Positions 31-18,893 of a stretch of DNA of 18,893 bases are shown here, piece by piece (the first letter of the stretch is position 1; each line of letters opens with the position of its first letter). A model generated the notes under the pieces. That model was not told the origin of the DNA. It made no database searches and saw nothing but the letters and a program-made list of their open reading frames with translations. Location: NCBI GenBank assembly GCA_945859975.1, contig CAMAPH010000047.1, forward strand, positions 1-18,893, given 5' to 3'. The position numbers were made by a program, and so were the translations under genes. The stretch is from Chthonomonas calidirosea. GTDB lineage: Bacteria > Armatimonadota > Fimbriimonadia > Fimbriimonadales > Fimbriimonadaceae.

Positions 31-1578
31 ATGGCGAACAATCAGGCTCGTCCCGATGAACCAACTAACGGTCCGGCAGCGTTAGCAGCGGAGCCAGCGG
101 CTTCGATTATCCAAGAAATCTCTAAGATTCCCACTCCGGAAGAGTCGACCCAACCCATGGCAAACGAACAATTTGATGCTGATCTAATCGTTATTGGTTC
201 CGGACCCGGTGGATACCACGCCGCAATTCGGGCCGCGCAACTTGGCGCGAGCGTGATTTGCGTTGAGCGCGAGTACCTCGGCGGAACCTGTCTGAACTGG
301 GGATGCATCCCGAGTAAGGCGATGATCGCGGCGGCGGAGCGACTCCACCACGTCAAGCACGCATCGGACTTCGGCGTTTTGGTCAACGGCGATGTCACGG
401 TCAACTTTGAAAAGTTGATGGCGCACAAGGAGAAGGTAGTTCTCACCGAGCGCGGCGGTATCGGGATGTTGTTCAAGAAGAACAAGATTCGCCACGTTGA
501 AGGGTTTGCCAGCTTCACCGACGCCCACACGATTTCGGTTGACAAGGACGGGGTCAAAACCTCCCTTCGAGCCAAGAACTTCATCATCGCTACCGGCGCG
601 ACCGCGATTCGGCCAAACATTCCGGGCCTTGGCGATGCAGGCCGAGATCAGGGAATCTGGTTCTCGGACGATGCCGTTACGGCACCTTTCATTCCAAAGC
701 GACTCTTGATCCTTGGCGGAGGCGCAATCGGCTGCGAGTTCTCGTACGTTTTCAACACCCTCGGAACCCAGGTGACGGTCGTCGAAATGATGCCAAACCT
801 AATCCCGCTGATGGATACGGACCTTGGCGTGGAGCTCGGCAAGTTGTTGGGCCGACAGGGCGTAAAGATGAAGGTCGGCTCAGCGCTTGAGAAGGTCGAG
901 CGCGTTGGCGATGCTTGGAAGTGCACGGTCAAGAAGGGTGCTGACGTCGAAGAGATCGAAGTCGATGTCGTCCTCCTGGGCGTTGGCCGAAAAGCCGCGA
1001 TCGACGGTCTTAACTTGGAAAGCATCGGCGTCAAGCTTCACCGAAAGGGAATTGAAGTTGCGGATGACTCGATGGTCACAAGCGTTTCTCACATCTACGC
1101 CATTGGCGACGTGACGGGCCGAATTCAGCTGGCTCACACCGCAATGCACGAAGGCACGATTGCCGCCCAGAACATCGTTCGAGGCGAGAGCAAGAAGGCC
1201 AAGTACAAGGCCGTTCCAAACGCGGTTTACACAAATCCTGAGGTTGCCAGCGTTGGACTTACCGAAGGCGAAGCAAAGGAAAAGGGATACGACGTCGTTG
1301 TTGGTCGAAGCAAGTTCATGATCTTCGGAAAGGCGATGGCAATCAAGGAAACCGACGGCTTTGTAAAGGTAGTTGCCGAGAAGAAGTACGGCGAAATCCT
1401 TGGCGTTCACATGATTGGCGCGCACACTACGGACATGATTCAAGAGCTGGTGGTTGCGCTCAATCACGAAGCGACGCTTGAGTCGATGGCCGAGTGCATT
1501 CACGCTCACCCGACGATGAGCGAAGCGATCTTCGAGGCCATCGAAGACGCCCAAGGTCACGCTATTCACAAAATGTAA
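31..1578 (+). CDS. lpdA: Dihydrolipoyl dehydrogenase (E3)
   Basis: FAD-binding GSGPGG, redox-active GGTCLNWGCIPSK, NAD-binding GGGAIGCE and C-terminal HAHPTMSE. Start is uncertain: ATG31 (4 nt after a frame-3 TGA at 24-26 that may end an upstream gene) or ATG157 (MANEQFDAD..., canonical length of 473 aa). Confidence 0.96.
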   Translation: MANNQARPDEPTNGPAALAAEPAASIIQEISKIPTPEESTQPMANEQFDADLIVIGSGPGGYHAAIRAAQLGASVICVEREYLGGTCLNWGCIPSKAMIAAAERLHHVKHASDFGVLVNGDVTVNFEKLMAHKEKVVLTERGGIGMLFKKNKIRHVEGFASFTDAHTISVDKDGVKTSLRAKNFIIATGATAIRPNIPGLGDAGRDQGIWFSDDAVTAPFIPKRLLILGGGAIGCEFSYVFNTLGTQVTVVEMMPNLIPLMDTDLGVELGKLLGRQGVKMKVGSALEKVERVGDAWKCTVKKGADVEEIEVDVVLLGVGRKAAIDGLNLESIGVKLHRKGIEVADDSMVTSVSHIYAIGDVTGRIQLAHTAMHEGTIAAQNIVRGESKKAKYKAVPNAVYTNPEVASVGLTEGEAKEKGYDVVVGRSKFMIFGKAMAIKETDGFVKVVAEKKYGEILGVHMIGAHTTDMIQELVVALNHEATLESMAECIHAHPTMSEAIFEAIEDAQGHAIHKM

Positions 1579-1591
1579 CCAAAACGGTTAC
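1575..1591. promoter_or_regulatory. Perfect dyad GTAACC-N5-GGTTAC, candidate operator upstream of the histidine kinase
   Basis: GTAACC 1575-1580 and GGTTAC 1586-1591, with a TANNNT box (TAATTT 1601-1606) 9 nt downstream. Confidence 0.3.
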
Positions 1592-1619
1592 GAAACCTGG
1601 TAATTTCTACGGCATCGAG

Positions 1620-2672
1620 ATGATTCGCAAGTGGGTTGAGCATCTCGATGCCTTTTTCCGTCCAAAAAGCGCCAATGTCAATTTAGGCTGGGCGTTTCTG
1701 TTTGCCCTTTTGATCGGTGGGGTGGACTATTTCCTTCCGGGAGAGCTGTACGTTCTGTATCTGTTCCCGGTCGCATTCGCGAGCTGGTATGGGGGGGCGA
1801 GTTATGGGTTCGTCGTCGCGATCTATGCCGCAACCGCGATCCTCGTTTCCGATTCGTTCCTGGAACGTCGCTTTGTAGACCCGCTCCCGCCGGTTATCAC
1901 ATTTGTTGTCCGGCTCGTATCGTATGCGTTGATGGCACTACTGGTTGGGCAGTTGAAGGAAGCTCAACGGCTACAGCAACAGCTCACCGAGTTCATCGTT
2001 CACGATATCCGGTCCCCGCTCACATCTTCCATTTCTGGATTGGAGACCTTGCAACAGATCTCGGACGGGATGGACGACATTCAGAAAGAGATGGTCGAGC
2101 TGGCGCTCGTGGGAAGCCAACGGACGCTAGGCCTGGTGAACGGAATTCTTGATGTTTCCAAGCTTCAGAACGGCAAGATGGAACCCGACTGGCAGCGCGT
2201 GCAGGTGGAAGATGTGGTAGCCGGGGCGGTAGACGACGTTGCCCTTTGGGCACAAACGAACGACGTGGCCATCCAAGTTGACGTCAGGTCCGCGGAGTGG
2301 GTGCTAGACCCGACCCTCATTCGCCGCGTCATGGTCAACTTGCTGAGCAACGCGCTGAAGTTTTCTCCGCCGCAATCGCAGATTACGGTAGCAGCTGAGA
2401 GCCAAAACAACGTGCTTCGCATCAGCATTGCGGACCAGGGACCCGGTATTCCACCGGAGTTTCGGCAGTCCATCTTCGAGCCGTTCAGTCAGGTGAAGGG
2501 GACGAAGGGCGGCACCGGACTTGGCCTAACGTTCTGCCGACTCGCCGTGAATTCTCACGGTGGACACATTTGGCTGGAAAGCACCGTAGGCAAAGGCACC
2601 ACGATGATCTTTACGTTGCCTCAGCAGGAACTGCCATCGGTGCCGGAAAGTAAACTGGAACCCAAAGCATGA
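1620..2672 (+). CDS. Membrane sensor histidine kinase (N-terminal multi-TM DUF4118-like region + HisKA + HATPase_c)
   Basis: H-box FIVHDIRSPL, N-box NLLSNALKF, G1 DQGPGIP, F-box IFEPF, G2 GTGLGL, and about 4 hydrophobic N-terminal segments. Start ATG1620 chosen because the longer ORF overlaps lpdA. Confidence 0.93.
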   Translation: MIRKWVEHLDAFFRPKSANVNLGWAFLFALLIGGVDYFLPGELYVLYLFPVAFASWYGGASYGFVVAIYAATAILVSDSFLERRFVDPLPPVITFVVRLVSYALMALLVGQLKEAQRLQQQLTEFIVHDIRSPLTSSISGLETLQQISDGMDDIQKEMVELALVGSQRTLGLVNGILDVSKLQNGKMEPDWQRVQVEDVVAGAVDDVALWAQTNDVAIQVDVRSAEWVLDPTLIRRVMVNLLSNALKFSPPQSQITVAAESQNNVLRISIADQGPGIPPEFRQSIFEPFSQVKGTKGGTGLGLTFCRLAVNSHGGHIWLESTVGKGTTMIFTLPQQELPSVPESKLEPKA

Positions 2673-3010
2673 GCATTTTAGAGACTTTTCCGAACCCGGC
2701 GGTTGGCCGCGATTACACGATCAAGCACGTCTGCCCCGAGTTCACGAGCGTTTGCCCGAAGACCGGGCAGCCCGATTTTGCGACGATTGAGCTGGAATAC
2801 ATCCCGAACGAGCTCTGCGTTGAGTTGAAGTCACTGAAGCTGTACTACTACTCTTTCCGAAACGAGGGGATCTATTACGAAGCGGTGACTAACCGGTTGC
2901 TGAACGAGATTTCCGAGGCTTGTTCCCCACGCTGGATGCGCATCACCGGGCACTTCAACGTTCGTGGTGGCATCAGCAGCGTGATCACGGTCGAGACCGG
3001 CTCTCGCTGA
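2669..3010 (+). CDS. queF: NADPH-dependent 7-cyano-7-deazaguanine (preQ0) reductase QueF, short unimodular type
   Basis: EFTSVCPKTGQPDFA with the catalytic Cys/Asp, QueF motif ELKSLKLY, C-terminal FNVRGGI. ATGA overlap with the kinase stop. Confidence 0.95.
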   Translation: MSILETFPNPAVGRDYTIKHVCPEFTSVCPKTGQPDFATIELEYIPNELCVELKSLKLYYYSFRNEGIYYEAVTNRLLNEISEACSPRWMRITGHFNVRGGISSVITVETGSR

Positions 3011-3044
3011 GCGAGCCACATCTCTGGTAGCTGTTTGAGAGGTT

Positions 3045-3074
3045 GAAAATTTCTGTCCGATCACGGGAATTTTC
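3045..3074 (+). terminator. Hairpin downstream of queF (possible terminator or regulatory stem)
   Basis: GAAAATTTCTGT(3045-3056)-CCGATC-ACGGGAATTTTC(3063-3074): 12-bp stem with two G-U pairs, followed by TTGTACTATT. AT-rich stem, so atypical for a terminator. Confidence 0.35.
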
Positions 3075-3167
3075 TTGTACTATTACGGCAACGGGTCATA
3101 TTAATGCGATTGCTTTAGGGAAACCTTACGATTGGCTTGGATCAGAACCACCCCGAGCCGAGGTCAG

Positions 3168-3770
3168 ATGGTAGCGTTCAGTAAATTCCTTAAAGTTGCG
3201 TGTGGAATCGCCGTTTTGATTGCTGGTTTCGGGGTCGGCCGGGCGATGGCCGGCCCTACCGGATCAGCTGCAGCAGTCAAATCAAAAGCGCTAGGCGAGG
3301 TTCGGGAACCTCGACCCGAGCATGTCGAAGCTGGAGTGACTCACCTTCGCTCAATCTACGCGCGGTTAGAGGCAGAGGATTTTTCTGAAGCAGCGATCCG
3401 TGCTCTGTCCAAGAGTGACCGGCGAATGCCGTTTTCCGATCTCGCGGAGAATGTCACGTTCCACAAGTCAACGAACCTCGGGTTCCCGAAGTATGCGGAG
3501 ACGCCGGAGGTGCTTGCGGTGACGGAGGTGTATCACTACTACAATCGCACGCCGAAGGCTCCAGGAATGAATCGGTTTCAGCCTCGTGGCTACCATCTCG
3601 TCCTCTTCCGCGACGGAGAAATCGGAAAGTTCACCGAGTGCGAGTTGCGATTCCCTGCGGAACCCGATAAAGACGGGGTCTATCACGTTCTCTATCCGAA
3701 CTCGAAAGGTTACGACAAAGGTGTGCCAACGCCGGAATGCGAGTACTCCGAGGAGCCGAAACCGGAATAA
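3168..3770 (+). CDS. Hypothetical exported or membrane-anchored protein
   Basis: 200-aa ORF filling the gap, with an N-terminal K-rich then hydrophobic segment (SKFLKVACGIAVLIAGFGVG...AMA). Alternative start TTG3132. Confidence 0.7.
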   Translation: MVAFSKFLKVACGIAVLIAGFGVGRAMAGPTGSAAAVKSKALGEVREPRPEHVEAGVTHLRSIYARLEAEDFSEAAIRALSKSDRRMPFSDLAENVTFHKSTNLGFPKYAETPEVLAVTEVYHYYNRTPKAPGMNRFQPRGYHLVLFRDGEIGKFTECELRFPAEPDKDGVYHVLYPNSKGYDKGVPTPECEYSEEPKPE

Positions 3771-11532: not shown

Positions 11533-12633
11533 CTACAGTCGAACGTCGATCTTGAAGATGTAGGCGATTCCGGTGAGGATTCCGGCCCCTAGCAAGCTGC
11601 CAGAAATCACCTGGAGGATGCCCATATTCCAGAGTCGCACAATCGGCGGAGCCTGCAATCGCCGGACGAGCGAATAGTTTTTCAGCAGGTCATTGGCGCT
11701 GTTGATGGCTCGGGCGACCTGAGCGTCGCTTGGCGGACGGGTCGTGATGAACTTCTGCATGAAGCTTCCGACTGTCTTCCAGAGAAGGAGCGTCGCTAAC
11801 ACCGCCGCAAGCAAGCGCACTTCGGAACTGGGAACCCAAGGGGTGCGAAAGATTGACAGGAACAGCATCATGCCGGCAGCCAGGTTTGTTCCGCAACGTG
11901 GATGCACGCGAGGCATTCGCTTGACCACATCCACGGAAAGCGTCTCTCCGCGCTCAAGGGTGTGGACGACTTGGTGCTCAGCTCCGTGAATGCCCGCGAG
12001 CGGCGAAAGGCGGAGGCCGCCTAGAAACAGCGCAAGCGCCAAAAACTCTGCCGCCGGATTCTGCATCCAGGTTGGGATGACTTTCACCAACCAGTCTTCG
12101 GTGATCCACGCTCCGAGGTAGTTGCCAGTTGCGAGAAGGGCGAACATCGAGAATCCAGTGGCTACAAGCGCCCACTTGTTCGGCCCACCGCTGGCGGTTC
12201 CGGTTGTGAGATATACGCCGAACGGAGTTGCCATTCCACCAACTAGCGGCAAAACCGGGCGCGGGAGTGGTCGGGGATAGAGGTCGGCGTACGACATGGC
12301 GCCTAGGAGCGCATTTGCATCGTCAACAACCCACAGCCGGTCAACACTTTCGGTTTCCATGAGCCGGAGCGCGTCAGCGGCGCTTTGGTAGGCACGGATT
12401 GTCACGGCGGGGGAAGCGACGGTAGGGCCGGTGAGGTCAACGCCGTCGGCGAGGGCATTGCCAAGGGCTTTTGCGGTGACGAGACCAATGAGAATTTCGC
12501 CGTCCGTAACCGGAACCGCTCCGTCCAAGGCGTCTCGCATGAGCGTTGCCGCGCGTTCCCAAGAATCCTCGGGTTGCAGGGTTCTTACCGGCCGTGCGAA
12601 CAGGCTCACGGGAACATCAAGGCGGATACTCAC
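11533..12633 (-). CDS. CBS-pair + DUF1385 (YqhQ-like) membrane protein
   Basis: Two N-terminal CBS repeats (AVPVTDGEILIGLVT; RLWVVDDANALLGAMS), followed by DUF1385 motifs VGGMA..FGV, HGAEHQVVH..E.GE.L and PRVHPRCGTN, plus TM segments. Confidence 0.85.
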   Translation of the reverse strand: MSIRLDVPVSLFARPVRTLQPEDSWERAATLMRDALDGAVPVTDGEILIGLVTAKALGNALADGVDLTGPTVASPAVTIRAYQSAADALRLMETESVDRLWVVDDANALLGAMSYADLYPRPLPRPVLPLVGGMATPFGVYLTTGTASGGPNKWALVATGFSMFALLATGNYLGAWITEDWLVKVIPTWMQNPAAEFLALALFLGGLRLSPLAGIHGAEHQVVHTLERGETLSVDVVKRMPRVHPRCGTNLAAGMMLFLSIFRTPWVPSSEVRLLAAVLATLLLWKTVGSFMQKFITTRPPSDAQVARAINSANDLLKNYSLVRRLQAPPIVRLWNMGILQVISGSLLGAGILTGIAYIFKIDVRL

Positions 12634-13679: not shown

Positions 13680-14945
13680 TTAGAGCTTCGTAATGTTCGA
13701 ACTCGTCACGGCCGATGCTTGTGGCGGCGTGTCGGAGTACGTCATTCGGTAAGAGGCGGTGCTGCCGTACATTCCGGAAATGCCGTCCTTGGACCACGGC
13801 GCGAGGTATCCCGTGGCGACTCGTTCATTGAGTCGCGGCACGATGTAGAAGAAGTAGGGGTGGAAACCCTCTTTGTCGACGCCATCCGAGAACGTTGGGT
13901 CTTGCGGTAGCCAGCCGGTGCCAGGGACAAAAATTTCGACCCAGGCGTGGTTTTGCGGGCGGCTATTTCGAAGGTCTACACCCAGAACTACTCGGGACGG
14001 AATTCCGATCGAGCTGATGGCGCGGGCATATAGGCTGCTGAAGCCGAAGCAGGTGGCTTTCTTGGCCTTGCAAACCTCAACAAACGTTGGCGGTTCTGGG
14101 ATTTGGTACGAGAAGTCCTTCACCAGCCCGCGGAAGAGCGTCTGCGCGGCCTTCATCGGGGCCATCGTTTGCTTAAAGTTCGTCGGCAAGTGGCGGTCGA
14201 CGAACTCTTTCGTGACGGCAACGTCTGCTGCCTCACCCGGGATTACGTTGTATTGCTTTGCTTCGGGAGGCAACGCTGCATAGTTGGTCCACGCCACTGC
14301 CTCCAGCTTCTTCGGGTTTAGCCGAATGTTGTACGCGACAACAATCTGATTTCGAATGACGTCGTACTCTCCCGGTCCGGCACTATCCTTTACCAAGCCA
14401 TCGGAGTCTTTCGTGCTCGGAGTCTCGGGTTCTTGGTGGGAGAACCGATCTTGGATCGGCATCGCGATCTCAAGTCGCTTGGCCACGCCCTGCCGGATGG
14501 TGACTTTGAATTTGTTCTCCAGCCGGTATTTAATCGGATCGACGCGCTCAAACTTATCTGGCAACACCGCCTCGATGACGCCCGTGTTTGGTTTGCCGCT
14601 CTCTACTGGTGCCCCGACTGGTACGGCGCGGACGGCATACTCCAGTCCGTAGTCAACGTTTGTGCCGGGTGACCACATGACGGTCCAGATCTTTCCGGGG
14701 GTTGCAACGAAGGATGGGCTTTGTTGGAGCTTTGTGGCGCCCGCGACTTGGTAGACGATCTGGAACGGTTCGCCGGAACCACCATTGCACCGAACTGTGG
14801 TTTGCAGGAAGAACGGTCCCTCTCCGAATCCAAATTTCTTCTCTTCGCCGGTGGAGGTCGTTACCTTAACTTGAGTCACGACAAGATCGGCCGCCATGTT
14901 TGGCGACTTCGTGAGATGGAGCAATCCTAGTAACGACAGGCTCAT
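13680..14945 (-). CDS. Transglutaminase-like (Cys-His-Asp) domain protein with a beta-rich N-terminal region, probably exported
   Basis: ATCFGFS...IGIPSRVVLG...NHAWVEIFVPGTGWLPQDPT, triad intact. Short hydrophobic N-terminus, then an Ig/CARDB-like DLVVTQVKV start. Confidence 0.85.
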   Translation of the reverse strand: MSLSLLGLLHLTKSPNMAADLVVTQVKVTTSTGEEKKFGFGEGPFFLQTTVRCNGGSGEPFQIVYQVAGATKLQQSPSFVATPGKIWTVMWSPGTNVDYGLEYAVRAVPVGAPVESGKPNTGVIEAVLPDKFERVDPIKYRLENKFKVTIRQGVAKRLEIAMPIQDRFSHQEPETPSTKDSDGLVKDSAGPGEYDVIRNQIVVAYNIRLNPKKLEAVAWTNYAALPPEAKQYNVIPGEAADVAVTKEFVDRHLPTNFKQTMAPMKAAQTLFRGLVKDFSYQIPEPPTFVEVCKAKKATCFGFSSLYARAISSIGIPSRVVLGVDLRNSRPQNHAWVEIFVPGTGWLPQDPTFSDGVDKEGFHPYFFYIVPRLNERVATGYLAPWSKDGISGMYGSTASYRMTYSDTPPQASAVTSSNITKL

Positions 14946-14987
14946 CTTGTCTGTAAGCTATTTTGACGAACGGATAATGTGATCAAT

Positions 14988-15677
14988 TCAACTTTTCTTA
15001 AGTTTGCGCAACTCATCCTCCGCCCTTTTCGCGTAGTCAGTGTCCGGATTCAACTGTATCAGCTTTTTGAAGGTCTCGACGGCTTTTTTGGTGTCTCCGA
15101 GATTCTTGTATGCAATTCCGAGCTCGCCGTACGCTTCTCCGCGCACGTGAGTTGAGACTTTTGGCATACGAGTGGGGCCGATGAACTTGATGAACGTGTT
15201 GCAATCATCGCGCAACGTCTCCCAAACTCGGCGCGGCAGCTTGTCTGCTGGCCAGTATTGGCCCTGAATGTAGAGTGTCGCAGCTCGCATCATGTAAATG
15301 TTCGGGTCCTTTGGCTTCAACTTCACGGCCGAATCAAGGGTTTTCCGCGAGGTTTCCAAAAGCGCCTCAGCCTCCGCCTGCTTTCCTTGAACACGCAGTA
15401 GCCCAGCTTTTACGGTCTGCCCGTTCCCAAGCCAGACTAGGGCGCGGGCATCTTTCGGATTCTTTTCGAGCATCGCGTTGATTTCTGCGTACCCAGTCTC
15501 GAAGGTTTTAAAGTCACCTCGGAAGACGGCGAAGAACTTTCGGCGGTACGTGACGATGAACGGATCTTCCTGGTACGTGCCGGCTACCGACTTGTTGTAT
15601 TCCGGCTTTGGATAGACGAACTGGGCGTGCGCGTGGGGGAGAAACAGCAGGACTGAGGCAATAGCGAAGGCGCGCAT
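14988..15677 (-). CDS. Exported tetratricopeptide-repeat protein
   Basis: Signal peptide MRAFAIASVLLFLPHAHA. TPR-like units LEKNPKDARALVWLG, AVKLKPKD and EAYGELGIAYKNLGDTKKAVETFKKLIQLNPD. Alternative start ATG15710 (GGGGG upstream). Confidence 0.8.
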   Translation of the reverse strand: MRAFAIASVLLFLPHAHAQFVYPKPEYNKSVAGTYQEDPFIVTYRRKFFAVFRGDFKTFETGYAEINAMLEKNPKDARALVWLGNGQTVKAGLLRVQGKQAEAEALLETSRKTLDSAVKLKPKDPNIYMMRAATLYIQGQYWPADKLPRRVWETLRDDCNTFIKFIGPTRMPKVSTHVRGEAYGELGIAYKNLGDTKKAVETFKKLIQLNPDTDYAKRAEDELRKLKKS

Positions 15678-15809
15678 GTCACTAGGTTTTACGTCAAAGT
15701 GCGCGAACATATCCCCCTATGGGACCGCCAGTTGGTGAGTTATGGTTCAACCCGTGCCAAAATGAGCGTGATTCGTTTGGCATCGGCCTGCGATATCGAG
15801 GGGCACTCA

Positions 15810-16376
15810 TTGGCAATTGACACCAGCGATTTTAGAAACGGTCTTTCCTTCGTGATGGACAACGAGTTTTGGACGATCATCGAGTTCCAGCACGTCAAGC
15901 CTGGAAAGGGTGGCGCGTTCGTCCGAACTCGACTCCGAAAGATCAAGTCCGGACAGGTCATCGAAAAGACTTTCCGATCCGGAGAAAAAGTAGAGCCAGC
16001 TTTCATCGAAAAGGTGGAAATGCAGTACCTGTACAAGCAGGGTGACGACGCGATCGTGATGGACCTCGACACCTATGAGCAGATTCCAATCCCGATGGCT
16101 ACGCTTGGAGACCAAGCCAAGTACCTGAAGGAAGAGTCGAAAATCATCGCGTCCGTCAGCGGAGCGGAAACCCTTGGCTACGAGCTTCCAAACTTTATGG
16201 AGCTAGAGGTCACGGAGACGGACCCAGGATTTAAGGGCGACACCGTGAGTGGAAGCAACAAACCAGCGACGTTGGAAACCGGTGCGGTAGTTCAAGTTCC
16301 TTTTCACATTAATATTGGTGATGTGATTAAGGTAGATACTCGTACCGATTCGTATCTTGAACGCGTCAAGAAGTAA
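15810..16376 (+). CDS. efp: Elongation factor P (lysine-type PGKG loop)
   Basis: HVKPGKGGAFVRTRL, KTFRSGEKV, MQYLY, PGFKGDT, KPATLETG..VQVPFHI..GD.IKVDTR. TTG start at 15810 with SD GAGGGG 6 nt upstream; 188 aa. Confidence 0.97.
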   Translation: MAIDTSDFRNGLSFVMDNEFWTIIEFQHVKPGKGGAFVRTRLRKIKSGQVIEKTFRSGEKVEPAFIEKVEMQYLYKQGDDAIVMDLDTYEQIPIPMATLGDQAKYLKEESKIIASVSGAETLGYELPNFMELEVTETDPGFKGDTVSGSNKPATLETGAVVQVPFHINIGDVIKVDTRTDSYLERVKK

Positions 16377-16381
16377 GAGCT

Positions 16382-17437
16382 ATGGCCGCCGGCAGAGACC
16401 TCAACGAGACACTTCAAGATTTTCTGTCGGCGTGTGCCCGATTCTTGCTTTATGCGGGCGCAGTCGCAGCCGTCGGCGCGGCTGGCCTACTCATTTTCAC
16501 CATCATTCGGATGGCTGACCCTGGAGCAGCGTCGCAAACGGCGGACGCCCTTCGCAATGTCGGCATTTTCCAAAACGTTCTGCTCGTTAGCGTTTTGGCC
16601 GCCGGGGTTGGTGCCAGCTACATGTTCTGGGGCGAGGATCTGCTGAGCGGTGGCTTGCTGATCCTAGCAGCCGTCCTTTACTTTGCTCCGCTTTACATTC
16701 CGATGATGGTCGCGAATTCCGACCAGAACGATGCTGGGCGGAAGAGTTACGAGGCACTTCAATCTGCCGGCACCTGGCTGGGTGTCATTGCGATAATCGT
16801 AGTTGTCGCGGATCTGTTTAACCGCGTCCGAAACCGATCAAAGGAAGGCGTCAAAGCCGATCTCCTGAAGTACGGCAAGGGTGTTAAACAAGAGCAGGAC
16901 CGCGAGAACGTGTTCCTTGGCAAGTGCTGGCAGCTGCCGTTTTGCCGAAAGTTCGTTCGCGAGCGCTGCCCGATTTACCATTCAAAGCGGACTTGCTGGA
17001 AGGAGCAGGTCGGCTGTATGTGCGAAGAGCAAGTCATCAAGGGTGCCATGGAGAACCGTCCGATTCCAAAGGACGCTTTGCTGGCCGCCCAGATGATCCC
17101 GCGGAACCATAAGCTCACTCCCGCGCAGAAGAAAGAGCGATGCAACGTTTGCGTGATCTACAACGAGCACCAGCGGCACAAGTACCGAGCCCTGTTGCCG
17201 GGCGTACTCGCTGGATTCATCGCCTTTTACGTCTTGTTCCGAAGTCCGCTGATGAGCGGGATGACCGCGCTCGTAGGACAGATCAATAAGGTTATGTACG
17301 GTTTCACCTACGGCGCGAGTGGCCAGCAGAAGATTCCGGTGCTCTTTACGGAGATGCTCTTGGTTGTCTTCTTCTTGGTCGCCCTGAGTTACGCATTGAA
17401 GATGATTGAATATGCCGTCTTCAAGCTGAAGATTTAA
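16382..17437 (+). CDS. Hypothetical ~6-TM membrane protein with a central 8-Cys 'two-CW'-like domain
   Basis: Four N-terminal and two C-terminal hydrophobic helices flank CWQLPFC..CPIY..CWKEQVGCMC....CNVCVIY. Starts 5 nt after the efp stop. Confidence 0.85.
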   Translation: MAAGRDLNETLQDFLSACARFLLYAGAVAAVGAAGLLIFTIIRMADPGAASQTADALRNVGIFQNVLLVSVLAAGVGASYMFWGEDLLSGGLLILAAVLYFAPLYIPMMVANSDQNDAGRKSYEALQSAGTWLGVIAIIVVVADLFNRVRNRSKEGVKADLLKYGKGVKQEQDRENVFLGKCWQLPFCRKFVRERCPIYHSKRTCWKEQVGCMCEEQVIKGAMENRPIPKDALLAAQMIPRNHKLTPAQKKERCNVCVIYNEHQRHKYRALLPGVLAGFIAFYVLFRSPLMSGMTALVGQINKVMYGFTYGASGQQKIPVLFTEMLLVVFFLVALSYALKMIEYAVFKLKI

Positions 17438-18492
17438 TGGCCCTGAGTCCGTTTCTACGGATCGATGGCTCGTTTGGCGAAGGTGGGGGCGGGTTGGTCC
17501 GGACAGCGCTGACCGTCTCCGCGATGATTCAGCAGCCCGTAGAAATCATCAACGTCCGCGCCGGGACACGGTTCCCCGGACTTGACGTCGAGGACGTCGT
17601 TTTACTTCGCGCGCTGGCCAAAGTGACTGGTACCGAGACGAGTGCGTGCAACGTTGGCGACCATTCGATCACGTTCCATCCGAACCATCGAGCAAAAGGG
17701 CTCTCGGGGAAGGTCGGAGGTGAGCGGAACGTTCACGGCCGAACCGCTAATGGGCCGATCACGCTTACGGCCCTCATTCCGGCTTTGGCGCGAAGCGGAA
17801 TGTACTCTTCGCTCCTCGTTGAAGGTGAGACTTTCGGAACGAATGCGCTCGGGTTTGATGCCTTTGCGGAGGGCACGCTTGGTGTACTTCGAGAGATGGG
17901 GATTTACGCATTTCCAGAGCATCAGCAGGTCGGGTTCGGGCGAGATTCGGCCGGCGAGATTGCGATTGATATTGAGCCTTCGGTGGTTAATGGACTCGAC
18001 TGGCCGGATCGCGGCAAGTTGATCGCGGTTCGGGGGCGGGTTTCCACCGCGAGAGTGCCGGAGTCGATTGCGGCGCGCGCGCTATCTCACCTTGAAAAGC
18101 TGGCGAAAGCGGCGAACGTGCCAGTTGAGGCAGAAGCGGTCGAGCTAGAAGGCGCGGCCTCCGGCGTGCACGTGACGCTTTGGGCGGTTTATGAACGTGG
18201 GCTGGCTACGGGCACTTCGATGGGAGTTAAGGGGCTGCGTGTGGAAGCGCTGGTGCAAGATGCTTTTGATCAGCTTGCGGAGTGGATGACTTCCAATGCG
18301 ACGCTGGATGCTTACTTGGCGGACCAGATTTTGGTTCCGGCGGCGTTTGCAGATTCCGGCAGCGTGTTCCGCGTTTCGGAACTGACATCTCGGTTTATGA
18401 CCGCGGTATGGGTGATCAAGCAGTTCGTGCCGGCCCGGATTACGGTTCGAGGTTCCGAGGGTGGGCCTGGGCTTGTAACCATTGAGCGGTAG
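17437..18492 (+). CDS. RNA 3'-terminal phosphate cyclase (RtcA)-like protein with a degenerate active site
   Basis: IDGSFGEGGG..VRTAL, NVRAG..PGL, D.YLADQILVP and colinear full length identify the RTC family. The catalytic His and several other motifs are substituted, so the symbol rtcA is withheld. TAATG overlap with the upstream gene. Confidence 0.88.
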   Translation: MALSPFLRIDGSFGEGGGGLVRTALTVSAMIQQPVEIINVRAGTRFPGLDVEDVVLLRALAKVTGTETSACNVGDHSITFHPNHRAKGLSGKVGGERNVHGRTANGPITLTALIPALARSGMYSSLLVEGETFGTNALGFDAFAEGTLGVLREMGIYAFPEHQQVGFGRDSAGEIAIDIEPSVVNGLDWPDRGKLIAVRGRVSTARVPESIAARALSHLEKLAKAANVPVEAEAVELEGAASGVHVTLWAVYERGLATGTSMGVKGLRVEALVQDAFDQLAEWMTSNATLDAYLADQILVPAAFADSGSVFRVSELTSRFMTAVWVIKQFVPARITVRGSEGGPGLVTIER

Positions 18493-18510
18493 GTAGAGAT
18501 ACCGTTCGGG

Positions 18511-18516
18511 TACTTT
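18511..18516 (+). promoter_or_regulatory. -10 box TACTTT 6 nt before a GTG start (leaderless-type promoter)
   Basis: ggg-TACTTT-cccacg-GTG(18523), with no SD. Confidence 0.5.
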
Positions 18517-18522
18517 CCCACG

Positions 18523-18893
18523 GTGCGCGTCGCCTTCCTTTTTGCGTTCGGAGCTTTGGCTGCCTTTGCTTCGGCAGATCGTTTGATCACGATCCCAACG
18601 GGGCGGAAGATTCCGTTCAAGGCGGTTCGGGCCGAGCTTTGGTACCAGCCGACGAAGGACGGCACGACGGAGTACTACTTTGGAACCGGATTGACGGACC
18701 TTTTTGAAATTGAAGTCCGAACTCAGCGACTTCCGCAACGGGATGTCAACACGGCGGTTGACCTGAGCTACAACATCATCGGTCCGATTCCTGACTTGAC
18801 TCCGGGCATTAGTATTGGCGTTCAGGACATTGCCAATGCGACCGTGGACGGGCGAAGGCCATACGCGGCACTCACTTTACGGCAGACACTTTC
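18523..18893 (+). CDS. Exported protein, probably a YjbH-like outer-membrane beta-barrel (partial, runs off the window; absent from the ORF track)
   Basis: My translation: MRVAFLFAFGALAAFASA-DRLITIPTGRKIPFKAVRAELWY...FEIEVRT...AVDLSYNII..IPDLTPGISIGVQDI...RRPYAALT. Signal peptide, IPT motif, P.ISIGVQD and alternating beta-strand pattern; no stop before the window end. Confidence 0.7.
   Translation, partial: MRVAFLFAFGALAAFASADRLITIPTGRKIPFKAVRAELWYQPTKDGTTEYYFGTGLTDLFEIEVRTQRLPQRDVNTAVDLSYNIIGPIPDLTPGISIGVQDIANATVDGRRPYAALTLRQTL

Follow-up and report, generated by a model that had tools for sequence, protein, structure and literature searches.

Does a gene for elongation factor P (efp) that is followed at once by genes for a cysteine-rich membrane protein and a paralogue of the RNA 3′-terminal phosphate cyclase (RTC) RtcA mark a new system for modifying EF-P? 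The question is raised by an 18,893-base contig of an assembly labelled Chthonomonas calidirosea (GCA_945859975.1, contig CAMAPH010000047.1), here called C47; the window is the whole of this contig, and it belongs to a genome of 3.12 Mb in 101 contigs with an estimated completeness of 95.8%. Genes for EF-P modifiers are often found near efp, and an earlier note on this DNA had proposed that the cyclase paralogue has turned to a protein or ribosome target such as EF-P, with the membrane protein as its metal or redox partner. The analysis reported here points elsewhere: the locus is probably a single housekeeping efp operon that has acquired a conserved pseudoenzyme. A dedicated EF-P-modifying system is unlikely because the genes amount to an ordinary efp, a membrane-protein gene found throughout the phylum, and a dead cyclase that is linked to them in one family only.

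The three genes lie head to tail on the forward strand: efp at 15810-16376 (188 amino acids), the membrane-protein gene at 16382-17437 (351 amino acids) and the RtcA-like gene at 17437-18492 (351 amino acids). The middle gene, which encodes a membrane protein with eight cysteines, is labelled MEM, and the RtcA-like protein, with its inactivated and remodelled active site, is referred to as pseudo-RtcA. Families of Armatimonadota are given f-numbers, of which f1 is the window's own family (Fimbriimonadaceae, to which the names carried by its nearest homologues assign it), f2 its sister family, and the others further families of the phylum.

An RtcA paralogue without the cyclase active site

The RtcA-like protein has the RTC fold and its insert domain (PF01137, 135.3 bits; PF05189, 45.3 bits), and it aligns over its full length with the RtcA structures 4o89 and 3tut at about 30% identity (E 1.7e-29 to 4o89). 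It nevertheless scores below both RtcA equivalog cut-offs (NF003246, 194.7 versus 352 bits; TIGR03399, 191.7 versus 250.05 bits). Residues were mapped by alignment to RtcA of Pyrococcus horikoshii (4o89) and Escherichia coli (3tut), and are named here by the P. horikoshii number. The histidine that accepts adenosine monophosphate (AMP), His307 (His309 in E. coli), is replaced by Arg319, encoded by the codon CGG at 18391-18393 on the forward strand. Also lost are Arg39 (Thr44 in pseudo-RtcA), Arg45 (Asp50), Gln47 (Glu52), His48 (Asp53), Trp125 (Asn136) and Tyr157 (Gly168). Arg17 and Arg36 are kept as Arg22 and Arg41, as are Glu15, the GGG loop and the LADQ motif (L294 A295 D296 Q297) with its Asp-Gln ribose contacts.

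In a structural study of RtcA with RNA (PMC4174438; P. horikoshii numbering), variants at Arg17, Arg36, Arg39 and His307 are inactive, the terminal 3′-phosphate is held by the strictly conserved Arg17, Arg36, Gln47 and His48 and by the backbone of Gly13, and Trp125 and Tyr157 stack RNA bases. Pseudo-RtcA has thus lost its nucleophile, one of the essential arginines, two out of five contacts to the phosphate, and the pair of residues that stack bases. Its phosphate loop has turned acidic, the codons for D50-V51-E52-D53 (17584-17595, forward strand) standing in place of the 3′-phosphate-binding R-P-Q-H of P. horikoshii RtcA. Its sequence shows that pseudo-RtcA cannot form the canonical His-AMP intermediate. 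The earlier note was right that the adenylate-ribose motif is retained and the RNA-phosphate contacts are lost, and was silent on the catalytic histidine, which is gone as well.

The replacements are shared by a whole clade. When the query was aligned with all 112 matches of the homologue search, 95 fell in the pseudo-RtcA clade and 17 were canonical RtcAs. The histidine column holds arginine in 91 of the 95 clade members and histidine in none, and histidine in all 17 canonical sequences; Glu52 and Asp53 are found in 93 and 95 of the 95, at columns where the canonical proteins have glutamine and histidine without exception (17/17); and the Arg39 column contains arginine in 0/95 and 17/17, respectively. 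Of 75 positions conserved in canonical RtcAs, the clade has kept 36, relaxed 29, and switched 10 to another conserved residue (these include G to E131, Y to G168, P to R169 and H to R319); another 27 show conservation in the pseudo-RtcA clade only. Compared with the locus of a close relative (L006), the gene shows 79 synonymous and no nonsynonymous differences, a ratio of nonsynonymous to synonymous divergence (dN/dS) of 0.000, and the ratio is 0.018 against that of a second close relative (L007). Because the replaced residues are fixed across the clade and dN/dS is near zero, these comparisons indicate a protein that is dead as a cyclase and is maintained under strong purifying selection, not one in decay. 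Source records label members of the clade 'RNA 3′-terminal phosphate cyclase', an annotation that is misleading because the residues that define the activity are absent. Literature searches on RtcA, Rcl1 and inactive paralogues listed no description of a dead bacterial RtcA, and the main text of the Fimbriimonas ginsengisoli genome paper mentions neither cyclase, efp nor RtcA.

Synonymous divergence between the window and L006, its closest relative, differs greatly from gene to gene (efp, 0.033; MEM, 0.090; pseudo-RtcA, 0.355), and unevenness on this scale suggests recombination inside the three-gene block.

Distribution and origin of the dead cyclase

An RTC profile (P0003) was run on 401 sampled Armatimonadota genomes, the same set that was searched for MEM. 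It matched 196 of them, with strong matches (E at most 1e-56) confined to f1 (45/47) and f2 (3/3). Twenty of its matches from other places were extracted and read at the key positions. The three f2 copies among them are dead too, with threonine at the histidine column, leucine at Arg39 and Met/Val-Asp at Gln-His; the other 17, drawn from three f3 genomes, from eight further families (eleven copies) and from second copies in f1 (three), have the canonical residue at each of these positions. In a maximum-likelihood tree built from 62 sequences (every fourth member of the pseudo-RtcA clade and all canonical sequences), the copies of f1 and f2 group together with 100/100 support, those of f2 being sister to those of f1, and the canonical proteins stand apart. 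Since the dead copies of both families form one clade apart from canonical RtcAs, the tree indicates a single origin of pseudo-RtcA in the common ancestor of the two.

In f2, the dead cyclase is found in other company, in the order DAGK/PAP2, CNNM/CBS/CorC, pseudo-RtcA and M48 peptidase, with open reading frames (ORFs) that overlap or abut; the M48 peptidase gene is next to pseudo-RtcA in two of the three genomes. Families that keep efp and MEM together were also found without any RTC-family gene (f16, 0/18 genomes; f20, 0/11; f27, 0/6; f18, 0/5; f10, 0/3).

Several single genomes deserve mention. Three members of the window's own family (G209, G255 and G315; loci L146-L148) have a canonical RtcA with all catalytic residues beside the dead copy, and the window's genome has the dead copy only, plus an RtcB on contig C35. 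Two others, G380 and G390 (genus g22, about 1.5 Mb each), are the sole own-family members without a MEM match and give only a 1e-9 RTC match; they may be reduced genomes that have lost both MEM and the RTC gene. A metagenome-assembled genome labelled Methyloversatilis discipulorum contains a Fimbriimonadaceae-type efp-MEM-pseudo-RtcA block (L085; contig CALRVI020000001.1, 1.44 Mb, 432796-441857) with a MEM that is 44% identical, and its species label or its bin looks wrong.

Conservation of gene order

Among close relatives, gene order was read in the best 80 of the 204 genome loci found with MEM. In 77 of the 80, efp immediately precedes MEM and shares its strand, two of the three misses being loci without upstream DNA, and an RtcA-like gene lies within 450 nt downstream of MEM in 71, one of the nine misses being at a contig edge. 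Across the phylum, the sample comprised f1, f2 and 24 further families at one to three genomes each, with 11 genomes for f16; 25 families could be scored for the efp-MEM pair, and f25, where the contig edge intervened, was left untallied. The pair is present in 14 (f1, f2, f7, f9, f10, f14, f16, f18, f20, f23, f27, f28, f30 and f44) and absent from 11 (f3, f6, f8, f11, f15, f17, f19, f21, f26, f33 and f34). An RtcA-like gene follows MEM in f1 only, of the 26 sampled families. The three-gene synteny that the earlier note wished to see tested therefore holds within the window's own family but not across the phylum.

What commonly follows MEM elsewhere is accB, which is directly downstream in 13 sampled families, including f3, where efp is absent; in most of these, accC lies further on, and the usual order is (efp)-MEM-accB-(small gene)-accC. 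In eleven families, MEM has no accB in its vicinity. The efp-MEM pair of f2 leads on to accB and accC, with a small pilin-like gene between these two. In f1, pseudo-RtcA is followed by genes for GH31, MIP, ComM-like, PfkB or unknown proteins, often on the other strand, and the conserved block stops there; accC-like matches in the window's genome are on contigs C1 and C97, not next to MEM. An accB-efp cluster may be widespread in other phyla. One is given as conserved in a Gecko 3 table (PMC5175365). With MEM standing between efp and accB-accC in about half of the sampled families, MEM would be an old insertion into an efp-accB-accC cluster.

Two further features of these neighbourhoods were recorded. 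A gene for a T2SSE (PilB/PilT-type) ATPase is directly upstream of MEM in f6 and f33 (L117, 2-856; L125, 2547-3656), and the small gene between accB and accC encodes an N-terminal methylation (pilin-like) protein in f2 and at L082 (L134, 2964-3365; L082, 5470-5871).

An ordinary EF-P

The first gene encodes EF-P, with a TIGR00038 score of 247.7 bits (cut-off 185.8) and matches to all three Pfam EF-P domains (PF08207, PF01132 and PF09285), and it is the sole efp match in the 3.12-Mb genome. Its start is best placed at the TTG at 15810, because the NCBIfam efp model aligns from residue 3 of the resulting product and a GAGGGG motif lies just upstream; the GTG at 15699 is the less likely start. 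The modification loop reads KPGKGG with Lys33 at its tip, which bears out the lysine loop described in the earlier note. Among 118 EF-P genes read from the loci, the segment KPGKGGAFVR is nearly invariant, and the loop is identical whether or not a family has the dead cyclase. It departs from this sequence in two families, f10 (PGKGP) and f18 (KLGRGG), neither of which has that gene.

None of the window's larger ORFs matches the EpmA, EpmB or EarP families, again as the earlier note had it. The survey was extended to the genome for EpmA, EpmB, EarP and deoxyhypusine synthase. The EpmA model TIGR00462 gave four matches, all below its cut-off (best 223.1 versus 286.9 bits, in a 571-residue frame on contig C93), which we infer to be ordinary class-II aminoacyl-tRNA synthetases. 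There was no genome match for EpmB (TIGR03821) or for deoxyhypusine synthase, and none for the EarP model PF10093, for which a control search matched 0 of 14 reference genomes. Such a lack of known modifiers is common: a survey that covered over 3,000 species could assign no modification type to 51% of the largest EF-P family (PMC11388002). It is therefore weak, largely uninformative evidence.

A membrane protein of the phylum

The earlier description of the middle gene product as cysteine-rich and membrane-bound stands, and the protein is polytopic. In an AlphaFold2 model built from 37 diverse relatives (predicted local distance difference test, pLDDT, 87.3), the chain opens with four long helices, folds compactly over roughly residues 175-257, where the cysteines lie, and closes with three more helices. 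C182, C188, C196, C205, C212, C214, C254 and C257, together with W206, are invariant in the 37 relatives, and W183 is almost so. A set of 46 domain sequences, taken from at least 20 families, has all eight cysteines and both tryptophans without exception. This core (16925-17152, forward strand) is presumed to be a metal-binding domain, and a basic stretch after helix 4 would place it on the cytoplasmic side.

MEM matched no Pfam or NCBIfam family. A Foldseek search with the full model gave a best E of 1.1, and the best VIA match (Z 8.4) was rejected as one to the generic helices of residues 1-141. With a model of the cysteine domain only (pLDDT 81.3), searches of solved structures reached no better than E 9.5 with Foldseek and Z 2.3 with VIA, which does not of itself prove a new fold. 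Sequence searches of the PDB returned only chance-level Nad4 matches, and those of the ESM Atlas only unnamed Armatimonadota clusters. Pfam hits to zf-CCCH_PARP12 and nsP3_ZBD, each in 2 of the 37 relatives when E values up to 1 were admitted (best about 0.09), are scattered and weak, and were set aside.

The family is large. There are 794 relatives in a 90%-identity collection and 347 representative clusters, and the records of the ten most distant and the ten weakest are named 'Armatimonadota bacterium', 'bacterium', 'hypothetical protein' or nothing. The MEM profile matched 381 of the 401 sampled Armatimonadota genomes, and 292 of the 301 high-quality ones, mostly in single copy. MEM is thus an uncharacterised signature membrane protein of the Armatimonadota and is of moderate interest as such; a literature search on Armatimonadetes signature proteins listed no account of the family. 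Variants occur. Adjacent, full-length tandem duplicates on the same strand are present in f23 (G238:C11:48404-50600 and G398:C5:1713809-1716005), and long forms of 559-602 residues occur at L116 (f8, 817-2625), L117 (f6, 871-2556) and L122 (f30, 1498-3177), with an N-terminal extension that matches no Pfam family.

Transcription and surroundings of the locus

The packing of the genes is as tight as the earlier note had claimed. The efp stop codon, TAA at 16374-16376, is separated by 5 nt from the ATG of MEM at 16382, and in the TAATG at 17435-17439 (forward strand) the stop codon of MEM and the start codon of the RtcA-like gene have one base in common. The note's claim that no hairpin separates the genes is borne out by a terminator scan of 14900-18893, in which none of the sites falls at either junction; the scan gave 6 such sites (shuffled sequence, 5.4 ± 2.0), each within or upstream of an ORF. 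A consensus scan for sigma-70-like promoters over the same interval found 0 sites. The leader region (15711-15809, forward strand) lies between efp and a divergent TPR gene (14988-15710, minus strand), and contains the likely ribosome-binding site GAGGGG at 15799-15804 (forward strand), 6 nt upstream of the TTG.

Contigs from freshwater metatranscriptome RNA libraries, which derive from related strains 95-99% alike to the window, cover efp and bridge the efp/MEM junction in two runs (16221-16488 and 16287-16487), with more than 100 nt on each side. In three runs such contigs start at 15790-15797, just upstream of the TTG, which is a weak hint of a transcript 5′-end. The stretch 16848-18542, including the whole pseudo-RtcA gene, is without such cover. 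The contigs agree with a shared transcript that begins shortly before the TTG, with the reservation that such libraries may contain DNA and that a two-gene contig is no proof of one transcript. From the spacing, the junctions without terminators and the bridging of efp and MEM, the three genes are probably transcribed together. GC content is 0.51-0.61 over efp, MEM and pseudo-RtcA, with no sharp break at the last.

Beyond pseudo-RtcA, an ORF at 18523-18891 on the forward strand runs off the contig; its 211-residue counterpart in L006 (6115-6750) has no Pfam match. An ORF at 11533-12633 on the minus strand has CBS domains and matches to DUF1385 and DUF6391. The remaining genes of the window appear to be those of ordinary metabolism (acetyl-CoA synthetase, an amino-acid kinase, acyltransferase_3, phosphofructokinase, a QueF-like protein, a histidine kinase and a dihydrolipoamide-dehydrogenase-like protein).

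Which explanation fits best

The proposal that the RtcA-like protein now acts on EF-P (or on the ribosome) and is partnered by MEM in a metal or redox role draws on the conserved gene order in the window's family, the lysine-type PGKGG loop, the retained Asp-Gln ribose contacts, and the failure to find EpmA, EpmB, EarP or deoxyhypusine synthase in a genome that is 95.8% complete. It is very improbable all the same. Without the AMP-accepting histidine, the nucleotidyl-transfer chemistry of the RTC family is unavailable to the protein; its gene is unlinked to efp in the sister family; families such as f16 (0/18) and f20 (0/11) keep efp and MEM with no RTC-family match; and the EF-P loop does not co-vary with the dead cyclase. 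The missing modifiers weigh little, given the 51% of the largest EF-P family with no assigned modification type (PMC11388002), an EarP search that had no positive control, and YmfI, which the search did not include. A joint system of all three genes directed at EF-P is consequently not supported. Alternatively, EF-P might have its functional partner in MEM and not in the cyclase, the membrane protein then serving to modify, tether or regulate it across the Armatimonadota. Nearly all sampled genomes of the phylum have MEM, efp immediately precedes it in 14 of 25 families (at MEM identities down to about 25-30%) and at 77 of 80 close-relative loci, and RNA-library contigs span the junction. Such a partnership is nonetheless unlikely, as the pairing is broken in 11 sampled families, linkage to accB is as frequent as linkage to efp and persists in f3 where efp is missing, and no enzyme-like fold or family was detected in MEM. 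If the accB-efp cluster is indeed widely conserved, the adjacency of efp and MEM may be one of inherited position only. The accB linkage can also be turned into an argument that MEM belongs with acetyl-CoA carboxylase and the making of lipids, perhaps by anchoring AccB/AccC to the membrane or sensing redox state for them, with efp and pseudo-RtcA as bystanders: accB directly follows MEM in 13 families, f3 among them, and accC lies beyond it in most. We regard this as a slim prospect, with accB-accC no longer beside MEM in the window's family (its accC-like matches being on C1 and C97) and eleven families having MEM without accB nearby.

A different possibility concerns pseudo-RtcA by itself, which might have been neo-functionalised through Glu52, Asp53, Glu131, Arg169 and Arg319, for instance into a hydrolase or transferase that depends on metal and has a nucleotide-like substrate. 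The 10 canonical positions that switched to another conserved residue, the 27 conserved in the clade only, the near-zero dN/dS and the retention of Glu15, Arg22, Arg41, Asp296 and Gln297 would all suit a new enzyme. Conservation of this kind is equally expected of a binding or scaffold role, such as that of eukaryotic Rcl1, which is a conserved RTC protein, and the threonine of the f2 copies at the histidine position means that Arg319 is not a fixed catalytic requirement; a new enzyme is accordingly a minor, though not negligible, possibility. The reading preferred here, a housekeeping efp operon with an acquired pseudoenzyme, would begin with an inherited efp-accB-accC neighbourhood, into which MEM would have been inserted early, between efp and accB; in one family only, the pseudo-cyclase would then have taken the place of accB-accC. 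The pseudo-cyclase has lost the AMP-accepting histidine and most of the residues that hold the RNA 3′-phosphate and stack the bases; its gains are two arginines, R169 and R319, and an acidic loop of D50, E52, D53 and E131 that is conserved. It would most likely be a non-cyclizing nucleotide- or metal-binding protein, produced alongside the membrane protein, whose ligand would sit in a rebuilt cleft of the Asp-Gln ribose contacts, Arg22 and Arg41, the acidic loop and the new arginines, with no His-AMP formed. This assignment of function is a weakly grounded suggestion.

The sole hint of a partner is a thin one, namely that pseudo-RtcA comes directly behind a membrane-protein gene in both f1 and f2. 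More speculatively, the dead cyclase could be a nucleotide or metal sensor recruited to the membrane, on the cytoplasmic eight-cysteine domain of MEM in the Fimbriimonadaceae and on a CorC-type transporter in f2, with MEM as a redox- or metal-sensing regulator, universal in the Armatimonadota, that couples EF-P-dependent translation or acetyl-CoA carboxylase to the state of the membrane through a metal-binding fold without a solved relative; this is a long shot. A complex prediction with EF-P, residues 150-270 of MEM and pseudo-RtcA scored 0.00 in both of its runs, which were made without controls, and carries no weight for or against any of these readings.

Several points count against the housekeeping-operon reading. 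The stable order in the window's family, kept at 71 of 80 loci while pseudo-RtcA identity falls to 35%, could mean a functional tie. Sampling outside f1 and f16 was of one to three genomes per family. The RNA-library contigs may stem from contaminating DNA, and their source is related strains. With known EF-P modifiers not found in the genome, a new one may exist, and the role proposed for the pseudo-cyclase is read from sequence alone.

Relation to characterized systems

With regard to EF-P biology, the outcome is mostly negative, and the locus is poor evidence for a new modification pathway. EF-P here has the modifiable lysine, but neither MEM nor pseudo-RtcA resembles the members of the known modification systems (EpmA/EpmB/EpmC, EarP and YmfI/YnbB/GsaB). 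Compared with the efp-accB-accC neighbourhood, the Armatimonadota add MEM between efp and accB, and f1 has pseudo-RtcA instead of accB-accC. What is new, in a modest way, is a selectively maintained clade of dead bacterial RtcAs together with an uncharacterised membrane protein of the Armatimonadota. The latter is near-universal, the eight cysteines of its domain do not vary, and it offers a promising way into the cell biology of a phylum that has received little study.

Pseudo-RtcA shares the two-domain build of the RtcA proteins of E. coli and P. horikoshii (3tut and 4o89) and keeps Glu15, the GGG loop, Arg22, Arg41 and Asp-Gln, but it lacks the histidine nucleophile and the equivalents of Arg39, Arg45, Gln47, His48, Trp125 and Tyr157. 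RtcA operons include rtcB (and rtcR), whereas pseudo-RtcA adjoins efp and MEM, the genome's sole RtcB match being on contig C35. A parallel is eukaryotic Rcl1, which acts in the 90S/small-subunit processome; it lacks the catalytic histidine, and both proteins are non-cyclizing members of the RTC superfamily. The sequence match between them is weak. Pseudo-RtcA scores 37.7 bits with the Rcl1 model TIGR03400 (cut-off 227.95) and matches PDB Rcl1 chains at E 2e-4 over part of its length, and in the tree its clade stands next to RtcAs from bacteria of this phylum. Its function was thus lost independently, within bacteria, and it is no orthologue of Rcl1. By analogy, Rcl1 may serve as an earlier example of a paralogue that is conserved, does not cyclize and is connected with the translation apparatus. 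A bacterial RTC pseudoenzyme under strong purifying selection would parallel it and, because a cultured Fimbriimonas carries pseudo-RtcA, would offer a tractable case of the change from enzyme to non-enzyme.

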